Shown: piece by piece, positions 1 to 64,000 of the stretch
Layout: every line of letters starts with the position of its first letter
Numbering within the stretch: the stretch's first letter is position 1
From: an uncultured Candidatus Peribacteria bacterium
Lineage (GTDB): Bacteria; Patescibacteriota; Gracilibacteria; BD1-5; JAGOOR01
Direction of reading: 5' to 3'
Assembly: GCA_964521495.1 (NCBI GenBank)
Contig: CAZFTF010000004.1
Location: forward strand, 15,889 to 79,888
Length of the DNA stretch: 64,000 bases
Notes under the pieces: generated by a model
Seen by the model: only the letters and a program-made list of their open reading frames with translations
The model's database searches: none
What the model was told of the DNA's origin: nothing
Made by a program: the position numbers and the translations under genes

Positions 1-1217
1 TTTTGAGAAGACATATATTTTGAGTTGTTCATTCTATCATGAAAATACCATACTGGTATAAAAAATGGTCAATATGAGAGAGAATTTGAATCTTTGAGAC
101 TGAACTTGAAAGGAAAATCCAAGCCCAAGGAGATTCTGATGGCCAGGATGGCAGATTTCAGAAATATAGAGAAATGTATGAAGCTGCCAAAGGGGTACAG
201 GTAAGAGACTCGGTAGAAGTTACACGAACCATTGTTCACTTTGCTGTTCAATCTATAGAATGACAAAGGATTGCTGATGAAACGATTGATTATCAACTCT
301 GCGTAAAAGAGGGTATAGACCCAAGATTATTCGAATTTTGGAAAAAGAAAAATTATAAGAGTGATGATTGCTGTCGACAAGAGGGTGAATATAGAACTCA
401 TAGTACTAAAAACCCAAGTAGCCCCTATGCTTGGTTGGAACATTTTTCAGATGAGGATAAACTAATAGTTCGCCAAATTATATGAAGTGAAGCAGATTTG
501 GTGGTACCGATAGTGAGTCCTGGAGAAAAATTTAGTCAAATCCCAGTCTTAGGATGGGTGAATATACCGGGGAGTTCTTTTGAGCTGAGCAATAGAGTTA
601 TCTCTCAGTCAGACTTTATAAAATTCTATAATTGACTTCTTGATGGGGGTATCTCGCCAGATGATATCGAACGGAAGTTGCAATTTAGACCATCAGAAAC
701 CCACAATTTTATACAGTCTAATTGATCCGGACAGCAAGAAAAATATCCAGATAGGCCCATGACTCTTGTTTCACCAATAATTGCCATGGCATATTGTCTC
801 TGTAATTGATGATTATTACCCCACCCTGATGCGTATAGAAGGCAAAATTTTAGTATACAAGAGTATGAACGCCTCCTCAAGACAGCAAACTATTGAGACA
901 GGGTCTGAATAAAAAAGATTTGACAAACAGAGCCCGAAAGATGATTGTATGATTTTTATGGAAACACTTCAGAATTGACACTGAATGGTTTAGAGACAGG
1001 ATTTTTTGGAGGATCATATCAGGACAGTGTTCATCATCTGGATCAACAGGTAGAGATACCCTACATGTACAGAACGACTGAAATTTGATTTCGCATGCAA
1101 AGTTCTGCACATAATGAGATACTCAGTGTACAATGATTAAAGGCCATACTCGCTAGATCGCGGAGTGCTCACGATGTTTTTGTCGCTCTGGCTAGAATGA
1201 ATAGAAATAGCCTATAG
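1..1217 (+). CDS. Partial (5-prime truncated) protein with a C-terminal formylglycine-generating-enzyme/SUMF1-like domain
   Basis: The frame is open from the window edge to TAG 1215-1217 when more than ten in-frame TGA are read as Gly. The C-terminal half has FGE/SUMF1-type motifs (RPMTLVSPIIAMAYCLCNGGLLP, GLYDFYGNTSE). The minus-strand track ORFs here look like antisense noise. Confidence 0.45.
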
Positions 1218-1242
1218 CACTCTTACTATTTATGGGGTAATG

Positions 1243-1262
1243 CTCTCTATACGCATAGAGAG
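1243..1262 (+). terminator. Perfect 8-bp hairpin after the first CDS (no U-tract)
   Basis: CTCTCTAT-ACGC-ATAGAGAG lies 26 nt after the TAG at 1215-1217. It is not followed by a T-run, so it is only terminator-like. Confidence 0.3.
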
Positions 1263-1330
1263 GATATAAATATGTAAATTTATACTTGAATAAGTATGTT
1301 ATTTTCATGAATATCCGTATACTTTCCTCC

Positions 1331-1747
1331 ATGGAAATCAAACTCTTCGCCGCTACAAAAGCGTTTATCGTGTATCAGGGTAAAGTATTGCTCCTGCGAG
1401 AGTCTTCAAAATATATTGATGGCTCTAATGCGGGGAGCTATGATGTGGTCGGTGGACGCGTGACCCCTGGAGAGCGATTTGATGAGAGCTTACTTCGTGA
1501 GATATGAGAGGAAACAGGTTTATCAGTCAGGATAGGTCGCCCCTTTTTTGTGAATGAATGGCGACCGGTTGTGAGAGGGGAACAGTGGCAGGTAATTGGG
1601 ACATTTTTTGAGTGCTTTGCTGATTCTGATTCAGTAGCATTGAGTGGTGACCATTCGGAGTATATCTGGATTGATCCAGCGGATTTTCGAGAGTATCCGA
1701 TTATTCCCAATCTTGTAGCAGCATTTGAGAGTTATTTATCCCGGTAA
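1331..1747 (+). CDS. NUDIX hydrolase
   Basis: Track ORFs 1286..1507 and 1550..1747 share one frame, joined by TGA 1505-1507. That TGA sits inside the Nudix box GGRVTPGERFDESLLREI[G]EETGL. Start set at ATG 1331; ATG 1307 or TTG 1286 are possible. Confidence 0.85.
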
Positions 1748-1760
1748 TCTTCTTTATCTT

Positions 1761-2069: not shown

Positions 2070-2102
2070 AGTGCTCTTTTGTAAATATTTTGAAGAATAA
2101 AA

Positions 2103-2885: not shown

Positions 2886-3022
2886 AAGAGAAAAGTTAAA
2901 AGTAATTCTATTAAATTATTTTACTGAATTAATTATTTTGTCAAAATACTTTTCAGTCATACAACCATGGATTGATTTTTTGGTTTTAGTACATACACTG
3001 AAAAGTCCTTAATACAATTTTT

Positions 3023-3511: not shown

Positions 3512-3530
3512 TGTTTTTCAAAGATTTTAA

Positions 3531-4042: not shown

Positions 4043-4390
4043 TTAGAGATTATCGATAACGAAATTGACGATGACCCAAGATGACCACGAAATAATCGCT
4101 CCTATAATGGCCATTTTTATTGCTGTTTTTCCAGTTTCTTTTGCTTTTTCACTGACTCCACCAAAGACATACATTAATGCTCACAGAAGTATAATTCCGA
4201 GACTGATATAACCAACAAAAGAAAGAAGAGTACTCGCTACACTGACAATAATACAGGGTATTTTATCAAATGAAATATCACCATTTCTTAATTGGTCTTT
4301 TGTAATACATCCAGCTCATTCAAAAATTGATTTTGATTGAGCGAGACTGACACGGGTTGCGAGGAGAATGAGAAAAACAATTATTCGCAT
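4043..4390 (-). CDS. TrbC/VirB2-type (T4SS pilin-like) small membrane protein
   Basis: ATG 4388-4390 to TAA 4043-4045, 2 in-frame TGA. Signal peptide MRIIVFLILLATRVSLAQ is followed by two TM helices flanking GGVSEKAKETGKTAIK. This layout is typical of VirB2/TrbC-like proteins of CPR genomes. Confidence 0.6.
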
Positions 4391-8473: not shown

Positions 8474-9124
8474 CTAGATGATAATAACGATTTCTCCTCG
8501 AAAGATACCTTTTTCCGCAAGTTCGTATAATTCATCGAGTGTTCCTCGGTGATAGGTCTCGTGAATTTTGGTGAGTTCACGGGCTACACAGGCGGTTTTT
8601 TCTCCTCAAAATGTTTTCCTGAGATCATCAAGTGTCTTACTAATTCTGTGAGGTGATTCGTAGATAATGGCTGTGTAGTCTTTCTCAGCGAGTTCTTTTA
8701 AAAGCGTCTGTTTTCATTTCTTGAGAGGCAGAAATCCGAGAAAACGGAAATCGTGCATATGCATCCCAGAACCAATCAGTGCCGTTAGTACTGCCGAGGC
8801 ACCTGGAATTGGTTCGATTTTTATACCTTGTGCGACAGCTTCCTGAATGAGGAGATAGGCGGGATCAGAGATACCTGGAGTGCCCGCATCAGAGATATAG
8901 GCGATATGTTTTTCTTTCGCGAGTTCAATAATTTTTGCTGCTTGTTCTCGTGTGCTATGACTATGAAAACTCTGCAAGGGTTTTGAAATCTCAAAATGTT
9001 TCAACATAGAACCACTATGTCTGGTATCTTCACAGACAATGATATCACATTCTCGGAGTGTTCGAAGGGCTCGGAGGGTGATGTCTTCCAGATTTCAGAT
9101 AGGAGTAGAGACAAGAGAGAGCAT
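8474..9124 (-). CDS. rsmI: 16S rRNA (cytidine1402-2-prime-O)-methyltransferase RsmI
   Basis: ATG 9122-9124 to TAG 8474-8476. The N-terminus MLSLVSTPI[TGA]NLEDITLRALRTL matches the conserved TPIGNL motif. The middle matches track ORF 8714..9007 (SDAGTPGISDPAYLL). Confidence 0.85.
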
Positions 9125-11396: not shown

Positions 11397-14369
11397 CTAT
11401 TTTATTACAATATTAAGAATCTTATTCGGAATAAAAATCTCTTTGAGAATGGTTGCTCCCTCGAGCCATTTTGCAATTTCTGGTTTTGATTCTATGGTTG
11501 TGCGGACTTCATCTACAGCGACACCTCGCATAAATGGATAGGTGCCTCGGAGTTTTCCATTGATTTGCACAGCAATCATGACCTCATCATCGATCGTGAG
11601 TGCTTCGATGTATTCTGGCCATTCAGTCTCGTATATACTACTGTCTTCATTGCCCATGAGTGACCAGCATTCTTCTGCCATATGAGGAGCAAAAGGATGG
11701 AGGAGTCGAGCAAGAGCTGATTTCCATTCTGTGCGAGTTTCAGCATCAGCTGGAGCTCATTCATTCATCATCACGTTGAGCATTGAGATAGCGGTATTAA
11801 ATTTCATATTCTCGATATCTTCCCCGATTTTTTTGATAGCCTTGTGCATCGTCTTCACGGCTTTCAGATTATCACTTGCCAGAAATGTTTTAAATTCATC
11901 ACTGGCTTCATCGGCTGTAAAGAGTCGATGAATTTTCTCCAGCAATCGATAGTTTCCGATAATGGCCTTGGTATTCCAAGGGGACACATCAGAGAAATCC
12001 GCCATACTCATCTCATACATTCGGAGCGTATCAGCACCATATTCATCGATGACTTCATCAGGATTGATAACATTTCATTTTGATTTACTCATTTTCTCTC
12101 CATCTGGCCCGAGAATCAGACCCACATTTCGGAGTTTAAAGAATGGTTCATCACTCGGCACAACACCGATATCAAAGAGGAACTTATGCCAAAATCGTGC
12201 GTAGAGAAGATGCAGAACAGCATGTTCTGCGCCACCGATATAGCTATCAGCTTCTCACCAATATTTCACAACAGCAGGATCCACGATGGCTTCATTATTC
12301 TTCGGATCCATATACCGCAGATAGTACCAGCAAGAACCAGCCCACTGAGGCATGGTATTGGTTTCTCGTTTTCCGACGAGATTGTTCCCAAGTCGTACAT
12401 TTACCCAATCAGGTATCGTCGCAAGAGGGGATTGTCCATCACCTGATGGTTCGTATTTTTCGACTTCTGGGAGCTTCAATGGAAGCGTATAATCTGGGAG
12501 AATCCATGAGTCGATTCATTGGTAGAGTTTACCGAGTATGGTATCTCATTTTTTGAGTACTTCTCCATCTACCCAGCATTCAGTATTGTGAGTTGTTGGG
12601 AGAGATTTCTTGTCTTCTTCTGAGATATGTATCAGGGGAATTGGCTCTCCCCAGTATCGCTGACGAGAGAAAATCCAGTCTCGGAGTTTGTAGTTGGTTA
12701 CTTTCTTTCCGAAACCTTCTTGTTCTGCCTTTTCAGTGAGCTTGATTCTTCCCTCAGCGGATGAAATCCAGTCGTAGTCATCAGAATTGACGAGGACACC
12801 ATCCTCAGTGAAGGCCTTTTCTTCAAGGAACTGATTCCACATATAAATACATGAATCAATATTGATGAATTTAGACACTTCTGAACTTTGAATCCATACA
12901 GGGGCATGTTTTCGTAATTCTTCTGTGCCTACCTCTACTTGTGCTTCATCAATAAGTTCAAATAATCACACCTCAACATGACCAACACGATTTACATCTT
13001 TTGGTCCTGTGAAATGATATGTTTTCTCTTTTCAGAGAGATCGAATAAAACGAATATTTGAATATCCAGTTTCTTCTAGAATCTCTCTTTTTCACGCTAC
13101 TTCTAAGCTTTCTCCCTCCGTTCCCCCAGACACGAAACCTTTCCAACTTGTTTGTTTCCAGTCAAGACATAAATATTTATCTTCAGTATGATGCTTGAGG
13201 ACAGCTAGAAGCAAATCTCTTGGTTCATCTTTTTTATCTTTTCGAGGAGCATAGTCACCGGTAGTATCGGTAAAAAATGGTCAAACACTCTGTTTGATTT
13301 TGAGTCCATATTTTTTCGCGAAATCCCAATCTCGTTCATCATGAGCTGGTACCGCCATCACAGCCCCCGTTCCATAATTTCCGAGAACATAATCTGCTAT
13401 CCATACAGGAACTTTTTCGCCATTGTAAGGATTTACAACATACGATCCCGTGAAGACACCAGTTTTTTCTTTCTTTTCATTGGTACGATCTTGGTCGGAT
13501 TCAGACTTTGTTTTTTCGATGTATTTTAGGCACTCTTTTTCATGTTCTGGCGTGATAAATTGTGCAACAGTTGGGTGATCAGGCGCCACGACAACATAGG
13601 TCATACCATAGACAGTATCGATACGAGTTGTGAAAACTTCCACATTAGGACAATCAATTCATTTGAGACTAAATTGGCATCCCTCACTTCTTCCTATCCA
13701 ATTTCTCTGCATTTCCTTGATACCTTCTGGCCAGTCGAGTCGGTCAATATCTGAGAGGAGTCGGTCAGCATATTTTGTGATAGCGAGGACCCACTGACGA
13801 ATGGGCCTTTTCTCCACAGGTGTTCCACAGCGTTCACATTTTCCATCGACGACTTCTTCATTGGCGAGTCCCGTTTTACAGCTCGGACAGAAATTAATTG
13901 GCTTATCACTTTCATACGCAAGTCCAGCCTCAAAGAGCTTCAAGAAAATCCATTGAGACCATTTGTAGTATTCTGGATCCGTCGTATCGACCTCACGATT
14001 CCAGTCAAAAGAAAAACCAAATCTCTGAAGCTGTTCACGAAAACGATTGATATTATTGGCTGTTGTGACTGCTGGATGTGTACCGGTCTTTATCGCATAG
14101 TTCTCAGCTGGGAGACCAAATGCATCCCACCCCATCGGATGGAGAACATGAAACCCTTTTGCATGTTTGTAACGCGCGATGATATCTGTTGCTGTGTAGC
14201 CCTTTGGATGACCGACATGAAGTCCTGCGCCGCTGGGATAGGGGAACATATCGAGCGCATAAAACTTGGGTTTATGACTATTTTCGAGTTCGGGATTGAG
14301 ACATTCAAAAGTGTCGTGTTCTGCCCAGTATTTCTGCCACTTTGGTTCGATGGATTGATGAGGATACAT
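11397..14369 (-). CDS. leuS: Leucine--tRNA ligase carrying an internal NUDIX-fold insertion
   Basis: Six track ORFs (11397..11681, 11757..12020, 12255..12479, 12546..12878, 13281..13643, 13659..14396) share one frame, joined only by TGA. Motifs: HVGHPKGY (HIGH), [17 protein letters not shown], and the CP1 motif [15 protein letters not shown]. Start set at ATG 14367-14369 ([15 protein letters not shown]). Total 990 codons. Confidence 0.92.
12804..13283 (-). other. NUDIX-fold domain inserted in frame within the LeuRS CP1/editing region
   Basis: About 160 in-frame codons lie between [10 protein letters not shown] and GVLVNS. They read ...[51 protein letters not shown]...VGHVEVGLFELID...VWIQSSEV. 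The Nudix box is at 13062..13127. No TAA or TAG occurs. Confidence 0.65.
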
Positions 14370-17663: not shown

Positions 17664-18083
17664 ATGCAATACAAGATTCCTATTCAGGTAGAAAATGAAG
17701 ATACAATTATTCTCGGTCTCAGCTTGAGACAAATGGGTATTATTATTGTGTGACTTATACTCGCTTTTGGCTTCTTCAATAAGTTTCAATCCACACTTCC
17801 CAAAACTCCTCTTATCATTGTTTGTGTGCTTATTGTTGGAATATTCTTTATCGTTGCCAAGTTTCGCACTCACGATATGACATTTTTGCCTTTTATCCTT
17901 AATTTGGTTCGTTATAAAATCAATGGTAATGGTGCAAAAGGCGAAGGAAGGCTATGGACTCGATGAGTAGATAGCTATTCCCCAATTGAAATTGGCTATG
18001 TGCAACCCGACTATGCTACGAGTAAGGGGAAAAAACGTACAAAAGATACCTCAAAAGTTGCAGAAAATATAAAAACACTGTAA
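17664..18083 (+). CDS. PrgI family (VirB3-like) small membrane protein
   Basis: ATG 17664 to TAA 18081-18083, 2 in-frame TGA. MQYKIPIQVENEDTIILGLSLRQMGIIIVGLILAFGFF followed by a second TM fits the PrgI/VirB3-type pattern found next to VirB4 genes. Confidence 0.6.
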
Positions 18084-18920: not shown

Positions 18921-20654
18921 TTAGTATATTAACTTCCTATAGCATTCCTCACAAACAACCCTCTCAGGTCTGTCTGGAGAATAAGTTGTAATAATTTCTT
19001 TCTGGCATTCTGCGCAAGTCCTCTCATAGAGTTTTCTCGGATTTCGCAAATCCATCCTCTCCTTATGTCTATGATCCGGATGTTTCGTAGGAATAGGGAT
19101 TCCGTTTTCAATATAGAAGACCAGTTCTTGTTTGATGATTTTGAATGGTTTTTTTGTTATCTCACATTGGATGATTCATCATAAAACCTCGTTGATATTT
19201 TCTGTGGCGGTTTCGTAACCAACAATTCTTTCGTCATATTGAGAGATGGATAGAGGAACATAGTGACTTCCAATATATGTATTCTTATTTTCCCCATCAT
19301 ACCATTTCCATCACTGTGCTTTTACTTCTTTCTCGGTCATAGGGAAATATTCATTCGCCACTGTTTCATTGTATGCAAAGGGGCTTAGGTCATGTGAGAA
19401 AAATTCTCACCACTCACCTGTACTCCGCATATGATCAATAATCTTTCAGCAAAGTGTTTCATAATCTTTGACAGAGTATGGAGTGTTGAGAATAGTGTGA
19501 AATCATTTTTTGAGAGAAGCACATCCAAAGCAGTTTTGCAGACCATGACAATCCATAGAATAGAAAACATCTGCTATATTATTGGCACAACTGAAAGAGA
19601 AACAAACATTATGTGCCGCTCATCCTACGAGTTGGTTTTCATAACAAAACTCCGCAGGGAGTCACCATCCATAGTTGTCATAGCAATTTTGAGCCTTGTG
19701 AAACCAGGTATTGTATTTACTGTTTTCTAGATAAGTGCAATCAAAATTGTGAAATGAATTTTTGGAAAAATGCACATAGTCACCCGTAACTGATTCATTA
19801 CCGAGTCATTTCATAAATTTCTTTGGCATTTTTTGGCAGAGATTTCGATACAGTGCGAGTGCCTGTTCTTTTTTTATTTCATCGGTCATAATATCGCGAT
19901 ACTGCTCACGAGAAAATTGATTATTCAAAACACAATACTGTTTATTCACGAGCCCAGAACAACAAAAACAATCCTTACAACTTTGGCAGTCCTGGGAGTG
20001 TTGGATATCATGGCAATCAACGCACGATTCACAAAAGTATGTCTGAAAGCAGTTTTTGCAATCCACACAACTATAACAATTTTCGAGATCAAAAACGAAG
20101 CAGGAGTCCATGACTCACTTACTTCGCTGCATATAGGTATCATAATAACAATCTTCGTTATCGTTACATGCTGCTATGAGATAGCAGTTTTTGTTATTGG
20201 CGGAGAGATGGGAATATTCTGAATTTTCATTTTTGGACTGATGGTAGAGATTCATTTTCGGAGCTTCGGTATATAAGGCTTTAAATTGATCAAAAAATGG
20301 TCTCTCAAAATCAAAGCTTCTTCCATAATCCATAGGTGACCAATCATCACCCCACCAAACCTTTTGATCATAAACAACATAAGGCTTCTCCGGAGAATAA
20401 ATCGAAATAATTTCTTGTCCTGTTTTATCACATTTTCTCTTGTAGAGCTTTCTTTCATTTCTAAAACACAGTCTTCTCTTTTGTCTCTCATTTGGGCACA
20501 GTGTCGGACTTGGAATTGCATATTTCTTTCCTCCAAATACTGGAGAAATCTTATCATAAAATTCAAGGTCTTTATCTGTTACAAAAAAATCCTGTCCGCT
20601 CAAGCGACATTTCTTTTTTTCAATGATTTTTTCTCCTGGAGGTATGAATGACAT
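18921..20654 (-). CDS. Cysteine-rich zinc-ribbon repeat protein, paralog A (577 aa)
   Basis: Track ORFs 20115..20654 and 19806..20111 plus about 300 further codons share one frame, joined only by TGA. ATG 20652-20654 to TAA 18921-18923. It has related N- and C-terminal modules (..RNERKLYKRKCDKTGQEIISIYSP.. and ..RNPRKLYERTCAECQKEIITTYSP..) and a central run of CxxC-type repeats. Confidence 0.7.
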
Positions 20655-20665
20655 AAAGATAGGGA

Positions 20666-22399
20666 TTAATAAACAAGTTTATGATAACATTTCTCACAAA
20701 CAACTTTTTCAGGTTTATCGGGAGAATAAGTGGTAAGGATGTTATCTTTACATTCAGAACAAGTGCGCTCAAAAAATTTCCTTGGATTTCTTAAATCCAT
20801 TCGTTCTTTATGTCTCTGATCTGGATGTTTCGTGGGAATAGGGATTCAGTTCTCAATATAGAATACTAATTCCTGCTTAATGATCTTGAATGGCTTCTTG
20901 GTTACCGCACATTCGATAATTCAACCCAAAACCTCATTGATATTTTTTGTAGCGGTTTCGTATCCGACTATTTTTTCATTATATTGAGCAATAGGTAGGG
21001 GAGCATAATGATTTCAGATATAGGTATTCTTGCTTTCTCCATCATACCATTTCCACCCTCTCGAAATTACTTCTGTTTCTGTCATAGGAAAGTATTCCTG
21101 AGCCACCGTTTCGTTGTACCCAAAATGTGCTATTCCATGAGGAAAGTATTCTCCCCATTCCCCCGTACTTCGCATATGGTCTATGATTTTTCCACAAAGA
21201 GTCTCATACTCTTGGGTAGAATAGGAGGTATTCATAACACAATGATGTGCCCTTTTGAGACTTGTACATCCAAAAATATTATCAGAATCCTGACATCCAT
21301 ATGCGTATATACCACCAGAACCATTCCAATAATAGAACGTAAACAGTCATCGAGTGACATCCACCGTGGAGCCAACTTCATAACAATATTCTATTCCTCC
21401 AGGAGCCGTATAGACTGCATCCATGCACTCTATTCCTTTTGGTGTAGAGTAGATATATTTAGAGTTTTCGAGTTTCTGGGAATCAAAACAAAAAAATGAA
21501 TTTTTACCATTTTCTATCTGATCACCGACACATCATTCGCAATTAATCTGTTGAGATGGTTTGACGGGGTAAGAGGATTTAAGTGTATCAAAGGACCTGA
21601 AGAGGGGGAGTCACATGGTATTTTTTGCATTTTCCAGTGTTTTCTCATAGGATTCACGGCTTACAGGTTTGTTGTAGACATGGTACTCCTTATTTTTTAA
21701 TCCAAAACAACCAATGCAGTGTGTGCAGTTTTCGCATCGCTCAATTCATAGACAATCGCGACAATTGATACTGTCTTTCGCATAGTAACATGTATAGCAT
21801 CGAGTGAGGTTGACTCATTGGTATACGTTTTCGCATTCAAAACAAAATGTTGCATCCATGACGTCACGACAGTCACGTATGAAATTATCATAATAACATG
21901 ATTCAGATTTTGTTGTTCCGACACAAAGATAGCAGTCCTTTGCAACAAGTGTGTGATTGGTATAGTCGCAATTTTCGCATTGTTTGGTAAAGAGATTAAG
22001 TCGAGGTGTTGCCTGCATGAGCTCACTAAATTGTGGGAAAAATGGTCTCTCAAAATCAAAACTTCTACCATAGTTCATCGGAGACCAATCGTCACCCCAC
22101 CACACTTTTTGGTCATATACTACATATGGTTTATCTGGAGAGTAAATTGAGATAATTTCTTTCCCTGATAAGTCACATTTTCTCTTATAGAGTTTTCTTT
22201 CATTACGAAAACACAGTCGTCTCTTTTGTCTCTCATCGGGGCAGAGTGTCGGACTGGGTATTGAATATTTTTTTCCTCAAAATATCGGAGAAATCTTATC
22301 GTAAAACTCCATATCTTTATCTGTCACAAAAAACTCTTGTCCGCTGATGCGACAGATTTTCTTTTCAGAGATGTTTTCTCAGGGGGGTATAAATGTCAT
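20666..22399 (-). CDS. Cysteine-rich zinc-ribbon repeat protein, paralog B (577 aa)
   Basis: ATG 22397-22399 to TAA 20666-20668, in frame with track ORFs 21014..21235 and 21815..22105. The termini are near-identical to paralog A (MTFIPPGENISEKK..., ...CEKCYHKLVY). It lies 11 nt upstream of paralog A. Confidence 0.7.
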
Positions 22400-38918: not shown

Positions 38919-38921
38919 AAT

Positions 38922-39575
38922 TTAACTAGCCCTCCAGCATTGATATACTCATATAAATCATATAATCGCAAGTCATCCAAGACCTCCTGTGCTGTTTCCA
39001 GTTACGGTTTGTGCTGATAGTGTCATTAATGTCAGAAGCGTATAATACAGACAGAAAATTGATACCCAAATTCATTCTTTTTTCTTAAACATCTTATATG
39101 TAAGAAACAAATATATAACTAAAGGGGTTAGGAAGACGAGTCAGGCATACGCTCAGGAAGCTAAAAACAAAAATCAATATATTGCTAAGTTTAAGACTCA
39201 AAGGATAGCAAAGAATATTGACCATTTTTCTATTCTTTTTCTATTTGCTTGTATTTTTTCAGTTGTTCTATGAGTTCATTTGATGAGCTCTAGATTTTTT
39301 TTATTAGCTTTCCTTACTTCTTCTTCCCCGACCCCTTCTCTCAGTAATTCATCAGAAGCAATTTTAATTTCTTTATCTGAATATTTTTCAGGTGATTTGA
39401 CTATTAAAATTAAGTCATGTATTTTTCGTTCTTGTAATCTTTTTTCCTCTTTTGACTTTATATGGTTTATTTTCTTCGGTTCTTTTTTCTCATGTAATTC
39501 TAAAAACTCTCAACAGAATCTACATTTTACAGCAGAGTCTTGAATGCTTTCACTACAAAATGGACATTTTTTCAT
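38922..39575 (-). CDS. Zinc-ribbon domain membrane protein
   Basis: ATG 39573-39575 to TAA 38922-38924, checked codon by codon. The N-terminus MKKCPFCSESIQDSAVKCRFC[TGA]EFL is a zinc ribbon. It is followed by a charged linker and three or four TM helices. Confidence 0.6.
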
Positions 39576-39598: not shown

Positions 39599-41746
39599 CT
39601 ATATCTTCTGCAACCCAATCCTTCCTTTCTCATTATCGACTTGGTAAACGCGGACTTTTACGACATCGCCTACGCGGACGACATCCTCCACGCGTTCTAC
39701 CCGTTTATCAGAGAGTTTGCTGATATGGATCATACCAGACTTTCCTCAACCGATATTGACGATAGCACCGACGCCTTCGAGGATCTTCACGACATCACCT
39801 TCGAATTCTTGACCGACCTCGATATCACGGACGATATTTTCAATCGCTCGTTTTGCACCTTCACCACCTTCTTTACTGAGACCTGTGATGACGACCATTC
39901 CATCATCTTCGATAGAGATCTCAACACCGAAATCTTTTTGCATAGCTTGGATAGTTTCTCCACCTTTACCGATGACCATACCAATCTTCTCAGGATCTAT
40001 CTTCATAGAGATAAGTGCTGGAGCGAGAGGAGAGACTTCTGGGCGAGGTGCTTCGATAGAGGCGAGCATTCATTGCATAATAACTTCACGACTTTTCTTT
40101 GCTTGAGTAAATACTTCTTTCACGATAGCGAGTGTGAGTCCTTCAATCTTTGTATCCATCTGGAGAGCTGTGATACCTGCACGAGTTCCTGCGACTTTGA
40201 AATCGAGGTCTCCGAGGAAATCTTCTTGAGCTTGAATATCTGAGAGAATGACATATTTACCTGTTGCGTCATCAAATATCATACCCATAGCGATACCAGC
40301 AACAGGCGCTGAGATGGGGACACCAGCATCCATGAGGGCGAGTGTCGATCCGCAGACAGAACCCATTGAACTCGAACCATTACAGGTGTGAACTTCTGAG
40401 ACGACACGGACGGTGTAACCAAATTGTTCTTGAGATGGGAGGACCGGTACGAGTGCTTTTTCAGCGAGGTTTCCATGACCGACTTCACGACGACCGACTC
40501 CTCGCATCATACGGACTTCTCCGACTGAGTAAGGAGGGAAATTGTAATGATGCATATAGCGGCGTTCTATCTCAGGATACATACCTTCGACGAGCTCGTT
40601 ATCGAGTGGTCCACCGAGTGTTGCAATAGAGAGGACAGAAGTGACACCTCGTCGGAAATGACCAGAACCGTGGGTTCGTGGGAGAATTCCAACTTCACAA
40701 TTGATAGGGCGGACTTCATCAGCCGCACGACCGTCGAGACGACGACCTGATTCGATGACATTTTTTCGCATGATTTTTTTCACATACTTGTAGACTGATT
40801 CTTCGATTTCTTTTCCGTTCAATTCCTCAGTATCTTCTGTATAACCAAGAGCCGTTTTGACTTCTGCCTCGAGCTCCTCGAGCTTGTGATGAAAATCAAT
40901 CTTGCCTGTGTCATAGAGTGCTTCAATCTTCTCAGGGGAGAGGACTGCAAAGACTTTTTCTTCGAGACCAGCGATGCCTGCCTTCGTTGCAAGGTCAATT
41001 TTTGTGATAGGGTATTTCGCATTCACGAGAGCGACGAAATCTTTCTGAGCTGCTCCGAGTTCAGCGAGTACCTTTTGAGCGTATTCAAATCCTCGCACCA
41101 CCATATCTTCACTCGCCTCTTTTCCACCCATTTCTACCATGGTAATCATGCCTTCAGTACCAGCGACGACGAGCTCATAGAGAGCGCTATTCACTTCTTC
41201 AAAGGTTGGATCAAAGATGATACCACCGTCAGCCATTACAGCGATGCGGACTCCAGAAACGGGTCCTTCAAACTGATGAACACCTGCAAGCTGCAAAGCA
41301 ATACTTGCACCGAGGATACCCCAGACACCGAAGTCTTGTTTCCCGGTTGCAGAATAAATCGTTGGGATAATCTGGACTTCATTGGTCGTTCCTTTTGGGA
41401 ACATCGGACGGATAGGTCGGTCAATGAGACGAGAGGTGAGAATAGCTGTCGTACTTGGTCGTGATTCACGCTTATTAAAACGTCCACCACCGATATGACC
41501 GGTAGAATAATAACGCTCTTGATAATCCACAGAAAGAGGGAACCAGTCAGCGCCAGGTTTACCAGACTTGGTAACACCCGCAGTGACGAGGAGGAGATGT
41601 CCTGCTTCATCAGCGATAGTGACAGCACCATCAGTGAGGAGGGCAAATTTGCCTGTTTCAAAAGTATAGGTCTTACCAGCAATAGTATAAGACTTGGTCA
41701 CAGGAGTGACGTTCGCGATATCGCGATCACGGAGGCCTGAAATCAT
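39599..41746 (-). CDS. pnp: Polyribonucleotide nucleotidyltransferase (PNPase)
   Basis: Track ORFs 40070..41824 and 39746..40069 plus an S1 tail share one frame and run to TAG 39599-39601. It has two RNase PH domains, a KH domain ([15 protein letters not shown]) and an S1 domain ([19 protein letters not shown]). Start set at ATG 41744-41746; ATG 41780-41782 is possible. Confidence 0.93.
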
Positions 41747-44428: not shown

Positions 44429-44956
44429 TTATTGTACGACAATTTCTTCTAGTTTCTCACGAGCAGAATCAAAGATGTCATCGAGTTTCTCTTTTTCTTC
44501 TTTTGTAAATTTTGATAATACCCAATCAGTTGCATCCATATGAGGATGGCGGTCGATTCCTATCTTGATACGTTTGATATCCTGTGTTCAAAGTGTGGTG
44601 ATAATGGAACCAATACCGTTGTGTCCTCCTTGGCTGCCAGTAGAGCGATAGCGTATTTTCCCAAAGACCATATCAAGGTCATCAGAGATGATGATGATAT
44701 TTTCTGTCGGAATTTTATAAAAATGCGCGCACGCTTGGACACTTTGTCCTGAGAGATTCATATAGGTCAGCGGTTTCAAGAGAATCACCTTATTTCATCC
44801 AAACATCCCCGAAGTGTAAACTCATTTATATCACGCTTGCCAATCATCTTTGATTCAGAGAGTTGTCTTCAGGACATCCAAAAAAAGAAACCCGACATTG
44901 TGACGAGTTTCCCGATATTTGTCTCATGGATTTCCGAGTCAGACGATGAGATACAT
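44429..44956 (-). CDS. pth: Peptidyl-tRNA hydrolase
   Basis: ATG 44954-44956 to TAA 44429-44431. MYLIV[TGA]LGNP[TGA][12 protein letters not shown] matches the GLGNPG motif, followed by [10 protein letters not shown] and [12 protein letters not shown]. Confidence 0.92.
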
Positions 44957-44967: not shown

Positions 44968-45420
44968 TTAGAGATTTTCTGTCCAAACCCCTACACCATT
45001 TGGACTATTACCAGATTTTTGACTCTTATTGGAGAATCGTGGCAAATCTCCAGCAGGAGAACCACTATCAAAGCTATCAAATTCTGAAGTACCGCTTCCT
45101 TCACTTGCAACAGAAAAACAGGATTCATCCGTCTTGCCAAATATTCGATCAGCGACACACCGCATGGTTTGGAAAATAACTCCGGGTTTAAATTTTTGTC
45201 CGACAGTTTCAAATCCAACCGCTGCAGAAACAGCAGGAGTAATCAAAATAACGACAAACATTACCAGGAGCCCAATCGCTGAATAGCGTATCATATTGAT
45301 AGCGGGGCTGACTTTGTGCTCATCACCACCTGAGATGACGAGAAGGAAGCCTCACCAGAGGACAAAGATGACAGTAAGAAGGATGGCGATAAGGAGAAGG
45401 ATAGCAATACCGACGGTCAT
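44968..45420 (-). CDS. TrbC/VirB2-type (T4SS pilin-like) small membrane protein with a Ser/Gly-rich tail
   Basis: Track ORF 44968..45294 extends through TGA 45352-45354 to ATG 45418-45420; ATG 45496-45498 is an alternative start. Two TM helices flank ISGGDEHKVSPAINMIRYS. It ends in TAA. Confidence 0.55.
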
Positions 45421-45482
45421 AAGCTCCTCGAGAGTATAAATCTGTTGAGAAGAATCAGCAAATCATGCTGTTTGAGCGTAGA

Positions 45483-45731
45483 CTATTGAGGTGAACATGG
45501 TTCAACAAGGTTTAAGAAAAGTTTTTTATTCTGCTTAATTCCAATTACTCGAACGAGCGACTGGAGAGCGCGAATAGTCTTGCCACTACGACCAATAACA
45601 CGCTTCATATCATCCGTGTGAACGGTGAGCTGGTAGCGTGTAGCGTCCTCATCCTCTCGTACCTCGAGAGATACGGATTCAGGCTGAGAGACAATGCGAG
45701 AGATACAAAAACGGATAAAATTTTCTGCCAT
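45483..45731 (-). CDS. khpA: KH-domain RNA-binding protein KhpA (YlqC/UPF0109)
   Basis: Intact 82-aa ORF directly downstream of rpsP, the classic rpsP-khpA synteny. The KH motif is VIGRSGKTIRAL. Confidence 0.8.
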   Translation of the reverse strand: MAENFIRFCISRIVSQPESVSLEVREDEDATRYQLTVHTDDMKRVIGRSGKTIRALQSLVRVIGIKQNKKLFLNLVEPCSPQ

Positions 45732-46708: not shown

Positions 46709-47755
46709 ATGAAAGTTCTTCTTCAACGCGTTTCTTGCGCTTCTGTCACTGTAGATAACAAAATAGTTGGGAGTATATGAAATGGATTTGTGATATTTCT
46801 TGGGATTACTCATAATGATAATGAACAAGATGTTCCAGCACTTGCTGAAAAAATAGCCAAGATTCGTCTTTTCCCTGATGCTAATTATCCAGCGGAAGGT
46901 TCAAAAGCTATCAATTGTTCAATTCGGGACATTGATGGGCAAATATTATTGATTAGCCAGTTCACACTGTATGCTGATACAAGTGCGGGGAATCGTCCAA
47001 GTTTTACGGATGCTGCAAAACCAGAAATGGCAGAGAAATTGTATGAATTAATGAAGTTCGAACTGCAAAAAATCACAGAAAAACCGGTTCAATCAGGTCT
47101 CTTCGGAGCTCATATGCATGTGGAACTGATTAATGATGGACCGGTGACAGTTATGATTATCGAGGAGTTTGTTTTTTCGTGTGACATCACCACCATAGAG
47201 GTATCCTGTGACATCTTTTCGATACGCATTGATGGTCTCACGAGCGATGACTTTTGCTCCGATAGCTGCTTGAATTGGGATAGAGAAGAGCTGCTTCGGG
47301 ATAGCTTTTTTGAGTTTTTCACAAAGTTCTTGTCCGACATAAAACGCCTTGCTTCTGTGGGTAATCGTGGAGAAAGCTCAGATTCGCTCATTATTGACGA
47401 GGATGTCGATTTTTACGAGATCATCACGTTTGTAATTCAATTGTTCATAGCTCATGCTCGCATATCCAGAGGAGCGAGATTTCAAATCATCATAAAAATC
47501 TGTGATAATTTCTGCCATCGGGATTTCATAGGTGATAATTGAGCGAGTTTCATCGATATAGGTCTGATTTTTGTAGATTCCACGGTGTTCTTGGGCAAGC
47601 TTCATCATTTCTCCGATCATATCACTACGAGAGATGATTTCGAGCTTCACAATCGGTTCTTCTATCCAGTCATAGGTACCTGGTTCTGGGAGGCGTTCAG
47701 GGTTTTTGATCCAGAGACGAGTAAAGGTTCTATCACCAACTTGCTCGACTTGTAG
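46709..47755 (+). CDS. dtd: D-aminoacyl-tRNA deacylase with no stop at its natural end (formal ORF runs antisense into lepA)
   Basis: ATG 46709 gives [23 protein letters not shown][G]NGFVIFLGI...[15 protein letters not shown]...[21 protein letters not shown], a complete Dtd domain ending near 47160. The first in-frame TAA or TAG is at 47753-47755. Confidence 0.75.
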
Positions 47756-48949
47756 GGGGGTATTTTTGAAATCATGGCTGTGGTCACCCGGCATCATCAC
47801 TTGGTAGGTCACTTGTGGAGAAGTCAGGATGACATCGAGGTCAAATTCCCGATCCAGTCTTTCTTTCACGATTTCCATATGGAGAAGTCCGAGAAACCCA
47901 CAACGGAAGCCATGTCCGAGGGCAGGGGAGACCTCGTGTTCATTCGTGAGAGAGCTATCACTCATCTTGAGTTTTTCGATATCAGTTTTGAGCTGATTGT
48001 AGTCCTCAGTATCGACTGGGTAGACACCAGCGAAGACGTAGGGAACGACTTTTTGAAATCCAGGAATGGGATGTTTGTATTCTTCTGCACCCGCAAAAAT
48101 AGTATCTCCAACACGTGCTTCCTGCAAAGTCTTGATACCAGTCACGATATAGCCGATTTCGCCTGATTTGAGAGAGGCAAGTGGTTTGTATTCTGGTTGG
48201 AAACACCCGACCTCGAGAATATCAACGATAGTATTGGTGCTCATCAGAGTGATTTTATCACCTCGTTTTATTTCACCAGAAAAAAGTTTAATATAAATCA
48301 CAACCCCTCGATATGAGTCATACTGCGAGTCAAAAATCAGTCCGAGTTTCACAGAATCTGGGATTTTCCCAGGGGCATTATTTGGTATGATTTTCCCTTC
48401 TGACGCGACTGAGCGAGGCTCTGGAATTCGTGCCACGATAGCATCGAGGACGTCTTCGACATTGGTCCCGACTTTCGCTGAAACACAGATAATATCTTCA
48501 TCTCGGCATCCAATAAGTGAGATAACTTCTCGCTTCGTTCGTTCGATGTCAGCAGAAGGGAGGTCTATTTTATTCAAAACAGGAATAATCACGAGATCGT
48601 GCTCAATCGCCATATACAGGTTGGAGAGCGTTTGTGCTTCAATTCCTTGTGTTGCATCGACGACGAGAATCACTCATTCCACAGAAGCGAGACTACGAGA
48701 GACTTCATACTGAAAATCTACATGTCAAGGCGTATCGATGAGGTTGAGTTCATATCATTTCCATGCCATTCTGACAGGAGTGAGTTTGATAGTAATACCT
48801 CGCTCTTGCTCTATATCCATTGTGTCGAGCATCTGAGCATTTTTCATCTCTCGTTTTTCTTTGGTTCCAGTGAGTTCGAGCATCCTATCGGCCAAGGTGG
48901 ATTTACCATGGTCAATATGAGCGATGATGCCGAAATTACGTATTTGCAT
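47048..48949 (-). CDS. lepA: Translation elongation factor 4 (LepA) with a non-canonical C-terminal 37 residues
   Basis: ATG 48947-48949 ([19 protein letters not shown]). Motifs DTP[TGA]HVDF and VE[TGA][10 protein letters not shown], with track ORF 47378..48673 in frame. The sequence matches LepA up to ...[12 protein letters not shown] and then diverges, reading antisense to dtd, to TAA 47048-47050. Confidence 0.9.
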
Positions 48950-53126: not shown

Positions 53127-53594
53127 CTAACTTTTTTTGACAACACGTCTCTTGTTTCGAAGCATTTCAAAATTGTTTTCAGGTGTTGGGTGTTGGAATA
53201 CTTTTTCCCATGATTTTTCTATCGCTCTTTCTTTATTATTTTCGATAATATCAGAATCCCAGTTGATTGTTTCTGTTCTTTTGAGTGGTTTCTCGAGAAA
53301 TTCTTTCACAGATTTTTCCCATCGTTTGATAGCAATAACTCCATTTTGGTGTGCAGAGCGCTGGTCCATACATTTGATGACTTTTGCTTCCGGAATCTCG
53401 AATTTTATAGGTTCGAAAAAATATTGAGAATAATCATTGTGGTCAGTGATTTGGCAACATGTAGAAACTTTGTTCACATTTTGACCGCCATGTCATCGAC
53501 TGGTGACATAGTGAATTGTGATATTTTGACGAGCGTCTTGAACTATCTCATCGATACTTTTTCGGAGATAGTAGGGTATTTTTTGGAATCGCAT
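53127..53594 (-). CDS. arfB: Class I release-factor-domain protein (ArfB/ICT1-like peptidyl-tRNA hydrolase)
   Basis: ATG 53592-53594 is followed by YVTSR[TGA]HGGQNVNKVSTCCQITD (GGQ motif), ...DQRSAHQNG... and a basic tail. Track ORF 53127..53477 is the C-terminal part. Confidence 0.7.
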
Positions 53595-53766: not shown

Positions 53767-55791
53767 ATGCCAGATGCATATTCATATATGATCATTTTTG
53801 GAGGAGCTATCGCGGCTCTTGTCTATGGAATCATTTTGATCGTCAATATTCTCCGACTCCCTACTGGGGATAAGAAAATGCGAGAGATAGCGGCTGCAAT
53901 TCAGGAGGGTGCGAAAGCATTTCTCAATCGACAGTATTCTACTGTTGCCGTTGTAGCACTTATTCTTTTTCTTGTGATTGGTTTTGTCAAACCTCTCGGA
54001 TGGCTTACAGCGAGTGCATTTGCTATTGGTTCTATTCTTTCAGCTATGGCTGGATATATCGGTATGAACATTTCTGTTCGTGCAAATATTCGTACGACTG
54101 AAGCTGCTAAAAAAGGTATCGACCAAGCACTTTCTGTCGCAGTAAAGGGTGGTAATATTACTGGTATGCTCGTCGTCGGTCTTGCGCTTCTCGGAGTGGC
54201 TGGGTTTTACCTCGGAGCTCTTTATTTTGGAGTACCAGTTGAAAAAGCAGTACACGCTCTTATCGGTCTCGGATTCGGAGGTTCTCTTATCTCTGTTTTT
54301 GCTCGTCTCGGAGGAGGTATATTTACAAAAGCGGCTGATGTAGGCGCTGATCTCGTCGGTAAAGTCGAAGCTGGAATCCCAGAAGATGATCCACGAAATC
54401 CTGCCGTTATCGCTGATAACGTCGGAGACAATGTCGGTGACTGTGCAGGTATGGCGGCTGATCTTTTTGAAACATACGTTGTGACCATTATCGCTGCGAT
54501 GATGCTCGCATTTACCCTCGGCAAAAGTGAAACATATATTCTCTATCCTCTTGTACTCGGAGGGGCTTCTATTATTTTTTCTATCATCGGTTCATTTTTC
54601 ATCCGACTTGGAAAAAATAAAAGCAAAATCATGTTTGCTCTCTACAAAGGTCTTATCGTAGCAGGTGTTCTCAGCGCGATCGGGTTCTACTTTGTGACAG
54701 AGAGTATGATTGGAGATATCAAAATTTTCTATACAACTCTCGTTGGTCTTGTATTGACAGCAGCAATGGTGATGATTACTGAATACTTCACTTCTACAGA
54801 TTTCAAGCCAGTTCAACAAATTGCTGAAGCATCTAAAACTGGTCACGGTACAAATATTATTACTGGTCTTGCGGTTTCTATGAAATCTACAGCACTTCCA
54901 GTGATTGTCATCGTCGCGGCTATCATTGTAGCTTCAACGCTTGGTGGTATCTACGGTATTGCCATCGCAGCAGTTTCTATGCTCTCTATGGCGGGTATTA
55001 TCGTGACAATCGATTCATACGGTCCTATCACTGATAATGCGGGCGGTATCGCAGAAATGGCAGAGCTTCCTTCGTCTGTTCGTGATATCACTGATCCTCT
55101 GGATGCAGTAGGTAATACAACTAAAGCAGTGACAAAAGGATATGCTATCGGTTCCGCAGCTCTCGCCGCTCTCGTACTCTTCAATGAATACGCTCAAAAA
55201 GCAGGCGAAGGTGTCACATTTGATATCAGTAACCCATACGTTCTCTCAGGTCTTTTCCTCGGAGGTATGGTCACATACTACTTCAGTGCTCTCTGTATGC
55301 AGGCAGTTGGTCGTGCAGCAGGTTCTGTCGTAGAAGATGTCCGTGCTCAATTCCGTGAGAAAACAGGTATCATGGATGGTACTGAAAAACCAGATTATGG
55401 TCGAACCGTCGATATCGTGACAAAAGCAGCACTCAAGGAAATGGTCTTACCCGCAATCTTGCCAGTCGCCCTTCCTCTTGTTGCCTTCTTTGGTCTCGGT
55501 TACTTCGTCAATGTTATTGTTGCAAAACAAACACTCGGAGGCATCCTCATCGGTTCTATCATCGTCGGTGTCTTCCTCGCTATCTCTATGACAAGCGGTG
55601 GAGGTGCTTGGGACAACGCAAAGAAATATATCGAACTTGGATTCTTCGGTGGGAAAGGTTCTGATGCTCACAAGGCAGCAGTAACAGGAGACACTGTCGG
55701 TGATCCATACAAGGACACTGCGGGTCCAGCTATCAATCCCATGATCAAGATTATCAATATTATTGCTCTTCTTATTGTTGGTTTGATGTAA
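53767..55791 (+). CDS. hppA: Membrane-bound proton/sodium-translocating pyrophosphatase
   Basis: Intact 674-aa ORF with no TGA. Signature motifs: [57 protein letters not shown]. Confidence 0.93.
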
Positions 55792-60760: not shown

Positions 60761-60775
60761 AGCTGTGCTTATTTT

Positions 60776-60803
60776 AAAAACTCCTTCAATTGAAGGAGTT
60801 TTT
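60776..60803. terminator. Bidirectional rho-independent terminator
   Basis: AAAAA-CTCCTTC-AATT-GAAGGAG-TTTTT sits between convergent genes. The minus-strand stop (60803-60805) lies in the T-tract. Confidence 0.7.
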
Positions 60804-61609
60804 TAATGATGCCCATGATCACCACCGTGCCCGCCATGTCCTCATCATTCACCGTGCCCGCCTCAGTGACCTCATCCACTCATCTTGTTGATACTGGTGA
60901 AAATAAGATGAATAATTCCAGCGATTCCAGCTGAAATTCAGATGGGAATATTTATGTCCATTGAGTTATTGAGAAGTGCACAAACGAGAGTCACCAGAAT
61001 AATCGTGCGAGTCGGGCCAAAAATGAGAGCGACTACTAATGCTTTTAAGACATACCCTACGATTTCTCCGATAATTCTCCCTATCATCCCAAAGATATAA
61101 GCTCATTGGTCACCAAACCAGTGGCCTGTGCTGACAAAACTTGAAAAGGGATTTGCATGGTGTCCATGGGAATGTCACCCATGCTCGTGACCACTATGGT
61201 CATGGTGTCAATGATGTGATTCATATAACCCATGATGATCATCGTGGTGTTCATTATGTACGTGTCATGTAGCATGCTCTGAGTGAGCATGTGGCGTATG
61301 AGATGCAGTTGCCTCGTGATATACCTCCTCGTGTGTATTGGTTGAATGTTCTGATGTGTGTGAATGTTTCTCCGTTCAGTGACTATGTGGTGTATGAATT
61401 TTTTTTGGGACAGAAGGGATGTGATGAATAATCACACGAGCCATAGGATCAAGTCCACTGTGCCCCATCCACTTATGAGCTACATGATGAAGTTTGTTTG
61501 GTGAATTGTGAAGAAGTTTCTTTGTCTCGATGGTTCGTTCGGAAATAGTATCTTCTTCGAGAAGGTAGGAAATATGTTTTTCGGGTACTATGCGTTTTTC
61601 AGGGTCCAT
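60803..61609 (-). CDS. Histidine-rich membrane protein with a Gly/His repeat tail
   Basis: Track ORF 61376..61609 continues through many TGA to TAA 60803-60805, 268 aa, checked codon by codon. A His-rich N-terminal region is followed by about three TM helices and the tail GGGHGGGHGEGGGHGGHGGDHGHH. Confidence 0.6.
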
Positions 61610-61657
61610 AAAATATCTCCTGATTGTAGGTATTTTTTTCTGGAGGCAATATTATTT

Positions 61658-64000
61658 TTAATCCCCAATAAGATCAAGTTGTGGTCATATATTCTCGAAA
61701 TATTTATTGAGAATATTTACCATTGTGTCTGATGGAATTTGTAATTGTTGTGTATAAAACTTCACCCAATCAAATCCATTTTCTTGTGATTTCATAACTT
61801 CTTGATCACCATTCAATGAAAAACGAACATCTTTTATTGAGGAATTATCTTTTGCATATATGAGTCATGTACCTTCTTTGTAATAGAATGGTCTTTTCGT
61901 GCCATCTTCAGATTTCCATGTTTTGTCTCATATAATTTCGGCCGATCATCCACCCCCCGGTCCACCATAATATTCTCTTCGTTTTCTCGTGTTTACTTCG
62001 TTATTAAGCCATTCCATATAATAGAGTGAGAGATTTGCCATCGCTACGGCTTGGTGAAACTCTAGGTATCCAGAGAGAGCACCATATTCTTTTGAGTAGA
62101 GAACCCATTGTCCATGACTTTCTGTGGATTGTTTGATTGTGATCGTATCATGTGAAAATGCAGGTCGAGAGAGAGTGATTGTCTTTTGGTCCTCGATCTC
62201 ATAATTGAGCTGGGTCCAGTTTGCACCATTTTCATATCCCTTGAGACGCTCGATTTCACCGATGTACCATTGTTTGATTTTTGTATCGTCAGTTGTATTT
62301 GGGGGAGTATTGGAAGGAGAATAATCTGCTGGTTGAGGAATATAATCTCTGATGCACTGTGGTACTGTTTGTCATTTCTTATAAATATTTTTGAAATAAT
62401 ATTCCACGAGCACCTTAAATACTTGGAGTATTTCTTCTGATGAAATCTGTCGCCCAAGAAGTGCAATATTTGCTATATTATTTTTGAGAAGGTCATTGAT
62501 ACTTTCCGTGGGAACATTCTGTTCGATAAAAAACTTGAGAGTATCTCATATTCCCTTGCGAGAACGCATCAGATCTGTCATTTCACGATTTTGACCGTTT
62601 ATAGTCGGCATAGCTGCCATAATTTGTGCTAATCAACCACTTGGATCGACAGGTACTAGGTTGATGATTGCATCAATTTCACGTTTTTGTTCTTCTGGTG
62701 TTTTGCCCGGCGTAATTTGTATGATATCTTTTTGTTCTTGTTCCCAAACAAATTTATCGAGAAAACCCTGGTATGTCTCCGGATCCTCAAAGGGGGTTTT
62801 CCAAGTATCTCTGTAGACACCAGCATAACTGTAAACATCTACATCATCTGATACATCATTTGCGAGCTGTCTGACTTGTTTCCAGAGAGATAGTGCATTT
62901 TTATATTCCACTGTTTGTTCCTGGGCTGTTTTTTTAGTATCTATGTCTCGCATTTTTTGTAGAAGAGTTTTATTCGTTATAAAATCTTCACTCCCAAGTC
63001 TTCGTCCTGTAAAGAAATACTTGATAGTATACATCGTATTACCTTCCTCGGCAGCATCTTCTTTTTTCCCAATAGCACTTCTATTGGCGTCTTCCTTGAT
63101 AATCGCTGTATCGAGCTTTCCATATCATGCGTTCATTTTTGTTGCCATTTGCGTATATGACAGATGCTCGTTTTGTGTCATGGCTCACATTTGCTTGAGA
63201 GTGTTTTCGAGATCTTCTTCTTGTTTTTTGAGAAGGCAATATTTACCATAAAAATCAGGTATTTGTCTTTTTCACCACGCTTCTCGTCATTCTTGATCTC
63301 AGAAGGTATAAAATCGTACGAGTTTTCCTTGAAGAGGCTTTCACGCCACCTGAGTCAGTATTTTATTATCCCAATACGTGAAAATATTATCACCTCCTAC
63401 CTCATCTCATGCTCAGAATTTAATCGGTATATTCCCTGAACTAGCCAGAAATTCATGTTCCCGTGCGACAGTTTGATGGAGATAGGTCATTTGTTCTCTC
63501 GCAGGGTCATAATTGACTATTCATACCCCCTCAAATATTTGTTGCACCCATGTAATAGGCACGTCTACAGAGGAGAGCACCTGTGAAATACCATTCGTCA
63601 CGACAGTATCTGGTATTGAGTCATCCACCCAACCGATGGCTTTATTGAAATTTTCAGCAGCTCGCGGGTTTGAGAAAACGGCAATAAATGTACCGACAAT
63701 AAGAGCGGTACTTACTATTGGACCACCTTTCCCAAGAAGTTTCGAGAGATATGCTGCGACTTTTGCCATTCCCGGAGCCTTACTTATCAATCAAATAAGG
63801 GCAGCAGCTCATCGACTCATCAGGATCATAGATCCGTATTCCAGGAGTGCTTTTTTCTTATCAACAGCGTTGTGAATGTAGAGCCCCATGATAAATAACG
63901 GGACTGCTCATGCTCATATTCGGAGACATTGTCGCATCAAATCCTTACCGATTTCCGTTGTTTTGGACCAAGTCTGAAATGATTTCTTTGCTACTTCTAT
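61658..64000 (-). CDS. Large hypothetical membrane-associated protein (partial; N-terminus beyond the window)
   Basis: Track ORFs 62633..63034 and 63521..63790 share a frame that stays free of TAA/TAG from the window edge to TAA 61658-61660, so at least 780 codons. I walked 61658-61744 and 62279-64000 codon by codon; 61745-62278 I read only by eye. There are TM segments near the window end. No family was recognised. Confidence 0.6.

Follow-up and report, generated by a model that had tools for sequence, protein, structure and literature searches.

The use of UGA as a glycine codon has been known from Gracilibacteria and Absconditabacteria since 2013 and corresponds to NCBI translation table 25 (Candidate Division SR1 and Gracilibacteria code), in which UGA is found at conserved glycines, UAA and UAG are the stops and UGG remains tryptophan. 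In this system UGA is served by a tRNA-Gly(UCA) with identity elements G1:C72, C2:G71, G3:C70 and U73. In the lineage, this tRNA is reported to be charged by glycyl-tRNA synthetase (GlyRS), and release factor 2 (RF2) to have been lost (Campbell 2013, Rinke 2013). The taxonomic literature assigns table 25 to GTDB class JAEDAM01 (BD1-5 and Absconditabacterales) and table 11 to Peregrinibacteria, which include the Peribacteria and now fall within GTDB class Gracilibacteria. UGA is also a sense codon under table 4, where it encodes tryptophan (Mycoplasmatales, Hodgkinia, Zinderia, Nasuia), and at the individual sites of selenocysteine recoding. For Absconditabacteria, an additional change of CGA and CGG from arginine to tryptophan was predicted with Codetta (Shulgina & Eddy 2021, PMC8629427). 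Here, a 64,000-bp stretch of DNA with 40.0 % GC (the window) was compared with these systems. We estimate at roughly 95 % the probability that it belongs to the chromosome of a Patescibacteria genome of Gracilibacteria type (BD1-5-like; GTDB class JAEDAM01) and is translated with table 25. UGA displayed the same placement at conserved glycines, next to UAA and UAG as stops and UGG as tryptophan, and gene content was likewise that of a small-genome bacterium from the candidate phyla radiation (CPR); no difference in the code itself was encountered. The sequence-only reading, an earlier inspection of these letters, had already qualified the code as described, and rightly so: UGA as glycine is here an instance of a known code, and close relatives of the window are already public.

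When TAA, TAG and TGA were all treated as stops (table 11), the window contained ten open reading frames (ORFs) of at least 300 aa and 90 genes with a median length of 97 aa, at a coding density of 0.586. Reading TGA as sense yielded 40 such ORFs, a coding density of 0.864 and 61 genes with a median of 249 aa. As controls, TAG as sense gave 11 ORFs of this size, a density of 0.594 and 90 genes (median 101 aa), and TAA as sense gave 16, 0.572 and 81 genes (median 98 aa). The gain in coding density and gene length was therefore specific to freeing TGA and far above chance. It was also foreseen that any standard-code annotation of this contig would be badly wrong, which is borne out by the 90 fragments that table 11 produces in place of 61 genes.

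The gene set was derived from a codon-usage-scored gene call, of which Pfam scans validated 42 genes. An earlier greedy longest-ORF call had been inflated by spurious ORFs on the antisense strand, at least eight in number (g05, g10, g26, g35, g36, g41, g51 and g52); compared with it, the scored call added NusA, DnaN, HxlR, bS16, KhpA, Gmad2 and a pilin-like gene. TGA was present in frame in 35 of the 42 validated genes (83 %), amounting to about 110 codons, and the statement that nearly every conserved gene is cut by TGA holds in this form. The seven genes devoid of TGA were those for DnaN, bS16, KhpA, thioredoxin, the H+-pyrophosphatase (H+-PPase) and TrmB, and a MazG-like gene. The stretches covered by Pfam domains in 34 genes (8,811 codons) included 77 TGA but neither TAA nor TAG; they also included 636 GGN codons, so that TGA would account for 10.8 % of the glycines. 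Validated genes terminated in TAA (21) or TAG (13), the C-termini of RlmE, LeuRS and SHMT fell within zero to four residues of the ends of their E. coli orthologues, and in none of the genes checked for their 3' ends did homology stop at a TGA. The claim that every coding sequence ends in TAA or TAG was thus valid for these 34 genes and not for the dtd ORF, which lacks a stop at its expected end (see below).

The amino acid read at TGA was deduced from a reference set composed of the E. coli K-12 loci for 12 orthologues and 71 lepA loci from standard-code bacteria. Against E. coli alone, glycine stood opposite TGA at 23 of 40 aligned positions and tryptophan at none. When all standard-code homologues were pooled, the majority residue of the 35 aligned TGA columns was glycine in 16, alanine in four and tryptophan in none; valine, lysine, isoleucine and asparagine were each encountered twice and the seven remaining columns were singletons. 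By the same measure, GGN columns returned glycine in 199 of 309 cases and TGG columns tryptophan in 25 of 45, and the method therefore recovers known codons. A glycine majority in 16 of 35 columns is far above the 7.7 % background of glycine (binomial P = 1.6e-9). In a BLOSUM62-based likelihood, glycine was the best of the 20 amino acids, with a log10 ratio of 9.2 over alanine and of 20.5 over tryptophan, and alignments to solved structures (Pth, PBP, Dtd, HxlR) agreed with glycine. The tabulation of homologous residues at each TGA column, which the sequence-only reading had proposed, favoured glycine and never tryptophan; its view that TGA falls on invariant glycines was corroborated in SHMT, LepA, Pth and HxlR, as was its rejection of tryptophan. 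In this window, UGA serves as a regular sense codon that specifies glycine and represents about 11 % of glycine codons, UGG is tryptophan, and UAA and UAG are the sole terminators.

Nine relatives were recovered from the GTDB species collection. Their LepA proteins were 85-97 % identical to that of the window over the best tblastn segment and 82-94 % identical over the full blastp alignment, and each of the nine lepA genes displayed one to eight in-frame TGA, no TAA and no TAG. Codons were paired one by one in validated orthologues of the window and these relatives. The 122 TGA of the window were matched by TGA (34), GGN (50) or other codons (38), and never by TGG. Starting from the 96 TGA of the relatives, the window displayed TGA in 34 cases, GGN in 49, other codons in 13 and again no TGG. 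TGG in the window (95 cases) was paired with TGG 89 times and with other codons six times, TGA and GGN being absent. This shows that TGA and GGN drift as synonyms within the clade; as the pairing was found in independent assemblies, sequencing error and pseudogenisation are ruled out. Comparable exchanges were observed inside the window between two tandem Cys-rich paralogues (18921-22399, minus strand; 577 aa each, 58 % identical and without Pfam match), where TGA stood opposite glycine eight times, opposite TGA once, opposite other residues ten times and opposite tryptophan never. Both paralogues carry CxxC-like repeats and ten TGA per copy.

Individual genes illustrated this placement. The lepA gene (EF4; 47048-48949, minus strand) contains TGA at 48755-48757, 48725-48727 (DTP[G]HVDF), 48674-48676 (VE[G]VILVVDA), 47378-47380 and 47093-47095; among standard-code homologues, the DTP-G column was glycine in 73 of 73 and the VE-G column in 72 of 73. 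In glyA (SHMT; 23379-24677, minus strand), the columns of all three TGA (24327-24329, 24093-24095 and 23973-23975) were glycine in 15 of 15 standard-code homologues. Seven TGA were found in pth (44429-44956, minus strand), including 44939-44941 and 44924-44926, which encode the first and the last glycine of the G-LGNP-G motif; compared with solved structures, four of the seven columns were invariantly glycine and one mostly so. The three TGA of rsmI (8474-9124, minus strand) at 9095-9097 (STPI[TGA]NLEDIT), 8714-8716 and 8606-8608 all correspond to glycines of E. coli RsmI, and the one at 37207-37209 (YTLTKK[G]) in the gene of the HxlR-family regulator (36967-37272, plus strand) falls on a column that is glycine in four of four solved homologues. 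Eight of the codons in these five genes had been singled out by the sequence-only reading, and all were TGA on the strand given, in the peptide contexts quoted. Ten in-frame TGA were present in leuS (11397-14369, minus strand), one of them in KMSKSK[TGA]N at 12075-12077. The class B penicillin-binding protein (PBP) gene (26216-28582, plus strand) had 18, and at eight of 12 aligned TGA columns glycine occurred in at least two of three solved reference PBPs. By contrast in number, pnp (PNPase; 39599-41746, minus strand) used two TGA versus 79 GGN, one of the two at the conserved glycine of IG[G]GKxG. In dtd (D-aminoacyl-tRNA deacylase; 46709-47158, plus strand), a single TGA occupies the GxI[G]xG position, where two of three solved Dtd have glycine.

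That UGA could be read as tryptophan, the meaning it has under table 4 in Mycoplasmatales and a number of endosymbionts, deserves attention because ORF lengths alone cannot tell tables 4 and 25 apart and because the public protein collection gives W at these codons in LepA and LeuRS of the clade. With such organisms the window has in common a sense UGA in a reduced genome, presumably accompanied by loss of RF2. The amino acid differs, however: tryptophan was the majority at none of the 35 TGA columns, whereas TGG columns recovered it in 25 of 45, TGA-TGG pairing with relatives was nil in both directions (0/122 and 0/96) when TGG-TGG pairing reached 89/95, and the W residues of the database sit on columns that are at least 95 % glycine in 72 standard-code LepA. 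Table 4 was refuted at the level of alignments, and we regard it as extremely improbable. Even less credence, practically none, is given to the standard code with TGA as true stops, be it in a decaying, pseudogenised genome or through sequencing or assembly errors. Genes called with table 11 do appear fragmented like pseudogenes, and the dtd/lepA locus looks damaged or misassembled. Yet TGA was the sole interrupter, without a single TAA or TAG in the 8,811 Pfam-covered codons; frame and homology ran on past every TGA, and the TGA were at glycine columns. Moreover, 34 TGA were conserved at orthologous sites of independent assemblies whose proteins were still 82-94 % identical, and the essential genes leuS, lepA, pth and glyA were all hit. 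This pattern of TGA refuted the true-stop explanation.

A dual or site-specific meaning, with TGA as selenocysteine, as a site of programmed readthrough, or as a codon that means glycine in some places but stop in others, is very unlikely. It draws on the fact that TGA is also the selenocysteine codon, used there as sense, and on a few ORFs with TGA near the 3' end, such as dCMP deaminase (…KDS[TGA]CNCC), where a stop is possible from sequence alone. But selenocysteine recoding is site-specific, depends on a selenocysteine insertion sequence (SECIS) and concerns Cys/Sec columns of few oxidoreductases, whereas about 110 TGA were spread here at glycine columns over 35 genes of unrelated function, cysteine was the majority at no TGA column, and Rfam revealed neither a SECIS nor any other RNA family in the window, one tRNA aside. 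The gene ends that could be checked were at TAA or TAG, and interchange with GGN was genome-wide. Reassignment of CGA, CGG or any other codon was likewise considered and rejected, as the per-codon tabulation displayed no credible deviation besides TGA. CGA was abundant (13.5 per 1000 codons) with an arginine majority in 32 of 70 columns, CGG had one in four of eight columns, and tryptophan was absent from the residues listed at either codon in this tabulation; both codons stay arginine. The window therefore resembles the extended recoding of Absconditabacteria (PMC8629427) in its UGA-to-glycine background and in a NUDIX insert of LeuRS, but differs in its abundant CGA read as arginine, in a LeuRS only 50-53 % identical to those references, and in its position elsewhere in the neighbour-joining (NJ) tree.

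For the decoding machinery we follow what is described for the lineage: a tRNA-Gly reserved for UGA, with anticodon UCA and charged by GlyRS, would read the codon; RF2 would have been lost, leaving no competitor at UGA; and RF1 would terminate at UAA and UAG. Several points weigh against the assignment of the window to table 25 and are gathered here. This decoding mechanism is one that we infer rather than show, and a tRNA(UCA) was found neither within the 64-kb window nor in the nine related loci; the only tRNAs of these loci were tRNA-Thr(CGU) and tRNA-Val(UAC), and the sole RNA gene found in the window was tRNA-Leu(CAA) (34719-34804, minus strand). About half of the aligned TGA columns were non-glycine in distant homologues, although GGN columns themselves were only 64 % glycine by the same measure. 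At LepA column 549, where the window displays TGA, 71 of 72 standard-code LepA have aspartate; within the clade this column has drifted to serine or glycine. Six of the nine nearest genomes are titled 'Candidatus Peribacteria', for which the literature describes the standard code. Finally, the stop of dtd is missing at its expected end, a defect that no meaning of TGA could repair.

As for the release factors, tblastn with E. coli RF1 and RF2 as queries in the window and the nine related loci returned the GGQ region of an ArfB-like protein as sole match, a 64-kb window being uninformative on genome-wide absence. This RF-1-domain protein of 155 aa (53127-53594, minus strand) is not RF1 or RF2; by its sequence it is an ArfB/ICT1-like candidate for a ribosome-rescue factor, and it displayed zero matches among solved structures. 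It carries a TGA at 53493-53495 just upstream of GGQ (SR[TGA]HGGQNVNKV), a position that we take to be normally glycine in the SGxGGQ motif.

The dtd and lepA genes are convergent and abut within a few bases (around 47149-47161), and the native 3' ends of both are absent. Homology to Dtd covers Pfam positions 1-143 of 144 and is followed by no TAA or TAG, the ORF continuing for 198 codons to 47755, antisense through lepA. LepA in turn lacks its canonical last 30 or so residues (…KQKKGKKKMKEFGKVSIPSETFIDILKKK in all relatives) and ends with a tail of 36 non-native codons (47048-47158) antisense to dtd. In the relatives, dtd is absent at this locus, and a metagenome scan for the dtd/lepA junction gave no match. 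The junction reflects a genuine deletion or insertion, or else a chimeric assembly.

The placement of the window was based on single-gene comparisons. Its nine relatives, with which it forms a genus- to family-level clade, bear the titles 'Candidatus Gracilibacteria bacterium' (three) and 'uncultured Candidatus Peribacteria bacterium' (six: L008-L010, L012, L013 and L015). All of the latter displayed in-frame TGA at lepA glycine positions, and one is a complete chromosome of 1,050,320 bp (OZ246415.1). In a collection of 5.8 billion proteins, the next LepA neighbours were 59-66 % identical, and those with names were Candidatus Gracilibacteria, a 'Patescibacteria group bacterium' and ACD_78C00320G0016. 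The last was deposited under 'uncultured bacterium (gcode 4)', the title used for depositing the original BD1-5 genomes. Among the LeuRS neighbours, identity to the window was 77 % for Gracilibacteria, 53 % for Ca. Absconditicoccus praedator and 50 % for Ca. Vampirococcus lugosii. Peregrinibacteria or Peribacteria were not among the LeuRS neighbours, nor Peregrinibacteria among the named LepA neighbours. In a LeuRS NJ tree (802 columns, no support values), the window and sequences labelled Gracilibacteria formed a group that leaves out the two Absconditabacterales references. Tryptophan at invariant glycine columns was displayed by 59 of 120 LepA matches and 20 of 40 LeuRS matches across neighbouring clades; these neighbours are therefore recoded genomes which the collection translated with table 4. 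The LepA and LeuRS neighbours, the LeuRS tree and the NUDIX insert together support membership of the window in the recoded Gracilibacteria/Absconditabacteria radiation, and the earlier placement in this type of lineage agrees with the nearest named homologues (Gracilibacteria, the BD1-5 'gcode 4' entry, Absconditicoccus and Vampirococcus). The 'Peribacteria' titles are probably an artefact of taxonomy mapping, i.e. the records are mislabelled. Should the label be phylogenetically true, for which we see a small chance, UGA-to-glycine recoding would reach further than the BD1-5 and Absconditabacterales of JAEDAM01, to which it is at present considered confined, or would have originated elsewhere.

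The NUDIX domain of LeuRS (about 155 aa, residues ~365-520, nucleotides ~12810-13277) is inserted after the editing domain and is common to Ca. Absconditicoccus praedator, Ca. Vampirococcus lugosii and several Gracilibacteria. In other relatives, LeuRS instead bears an alpha/beta-hydrolase, a Ham1 or an acetyltransferase domain, found elsewhere in the protein as a fusion or an insertion. From these domain architectures, LeuRS looks like a hotspot of domain acquisition in this radiation. In the literature library searched, no publication mentions that the LeuRS of CPR bacteria may contain a NUDIX insert.

The share of TGA among glycine codons varied from 0 to 62 % per gene. It was 0 % in H+-PPase, DnaN, bS16 and thioredoxin, 2 % (2/81) in PNPase, 30 % in the PBP and 45-62 % in AT-rich ORFs without Pfam match (g01, g33 and g45; e.g. 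38073-39575, 31254-32276 and 39-1217). The share was lower at higher gene GC (Spearman -0.46, p = 0.001), which fits TGA being an AT-rich, less favoured glycine synonym; core genes of higher GC use it seldom or not at all, whereas it is frequent in AT-rich genes of low conservation. The three TGA-rich ORFs had poor codon-usage scores; they may be of foreign origin, may evolve fast or may not be genes. The TGA-free H+-PPase gene (53767-55791, plus strand) lies within a 2.2-kb segment that does not align with the closest relative, where the syntenic position is taken up by about 1 kb of unrelated sequence (L007, 3948-4985). A recent gain or loss of the H+-PPase segment is possible.

The window is a chromosomal segment, and a mobile element was excluded as a reading. 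According to Pfam, genes for translation, replication and RNA processing encode LeuRS, LepA, NusA, DnaN, RecF, bS16, KhpA, PNPase, Pth, Dtd, RsmI, RlmE, DNA polymerase III delta', a PriA-like protein and the ArfB-like RF-1-domain protein. Metabolism and envelope were represented by SHMT, pyruvate kinase, MurF, the class B PBP, an L,D-transpeptidase, dCMP deaminase, thioredoxin, a GT4 glycosyltransferase and a TrhO-like rhodanese. Transport genes comprised the H+-PPase, a Na/Pi cotransporter, a ZIP transporter, an MscS channel and an ion channel, and regulators and surface proteins were HrcA, HxlR, TrmB, type IV secretion system (T4SS)-type pilins and a PrgI-family protein. Two T4SS-type pilin-like genes, one PrgI-family gene and the gene of a His/Gly-rich protein were located among 4043-4390 (minus), 17664-18083 (plus), 44968-45498 (minus) and 60803-61609 (minus). 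The His/Gly-rich protein displayed C-terminal GHGG repeats partly spelled with TGA (…SG[TGA]GH[TGA]GGHGE[TGA][TGA]GHGGHGG).

Public records of this clade were affected in two ways. LepA and LeuRS of relatives in the 5.8-billion-protein collection displayed tryptophan at invariant glycines, as in SVEWVVLVVDA and LYWWDITRK, and were therefore translated with table 4; in two LeuRS (P0212 and P0239), 15-16 of 24 conserved glycines were encoded by TGA. JGI entries such as P0017 were table-11 fragments spanning from TGA to TGA. The understanding of the genetic code is left unchanged by the window, and its value is practical. Annotation with table 4 places tryptophan at catalytic glycines, which is already the case for relatives in the public collection, and the filing of such genomes as 'Peribacteria', including a complete 1.05-Mb chromosome, under a name associated with the standard code invites the corresponding error with table 11. 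For the lineage itself, a group of bacteria that is little studied and probably host-dependent, the contig contributes a further member.

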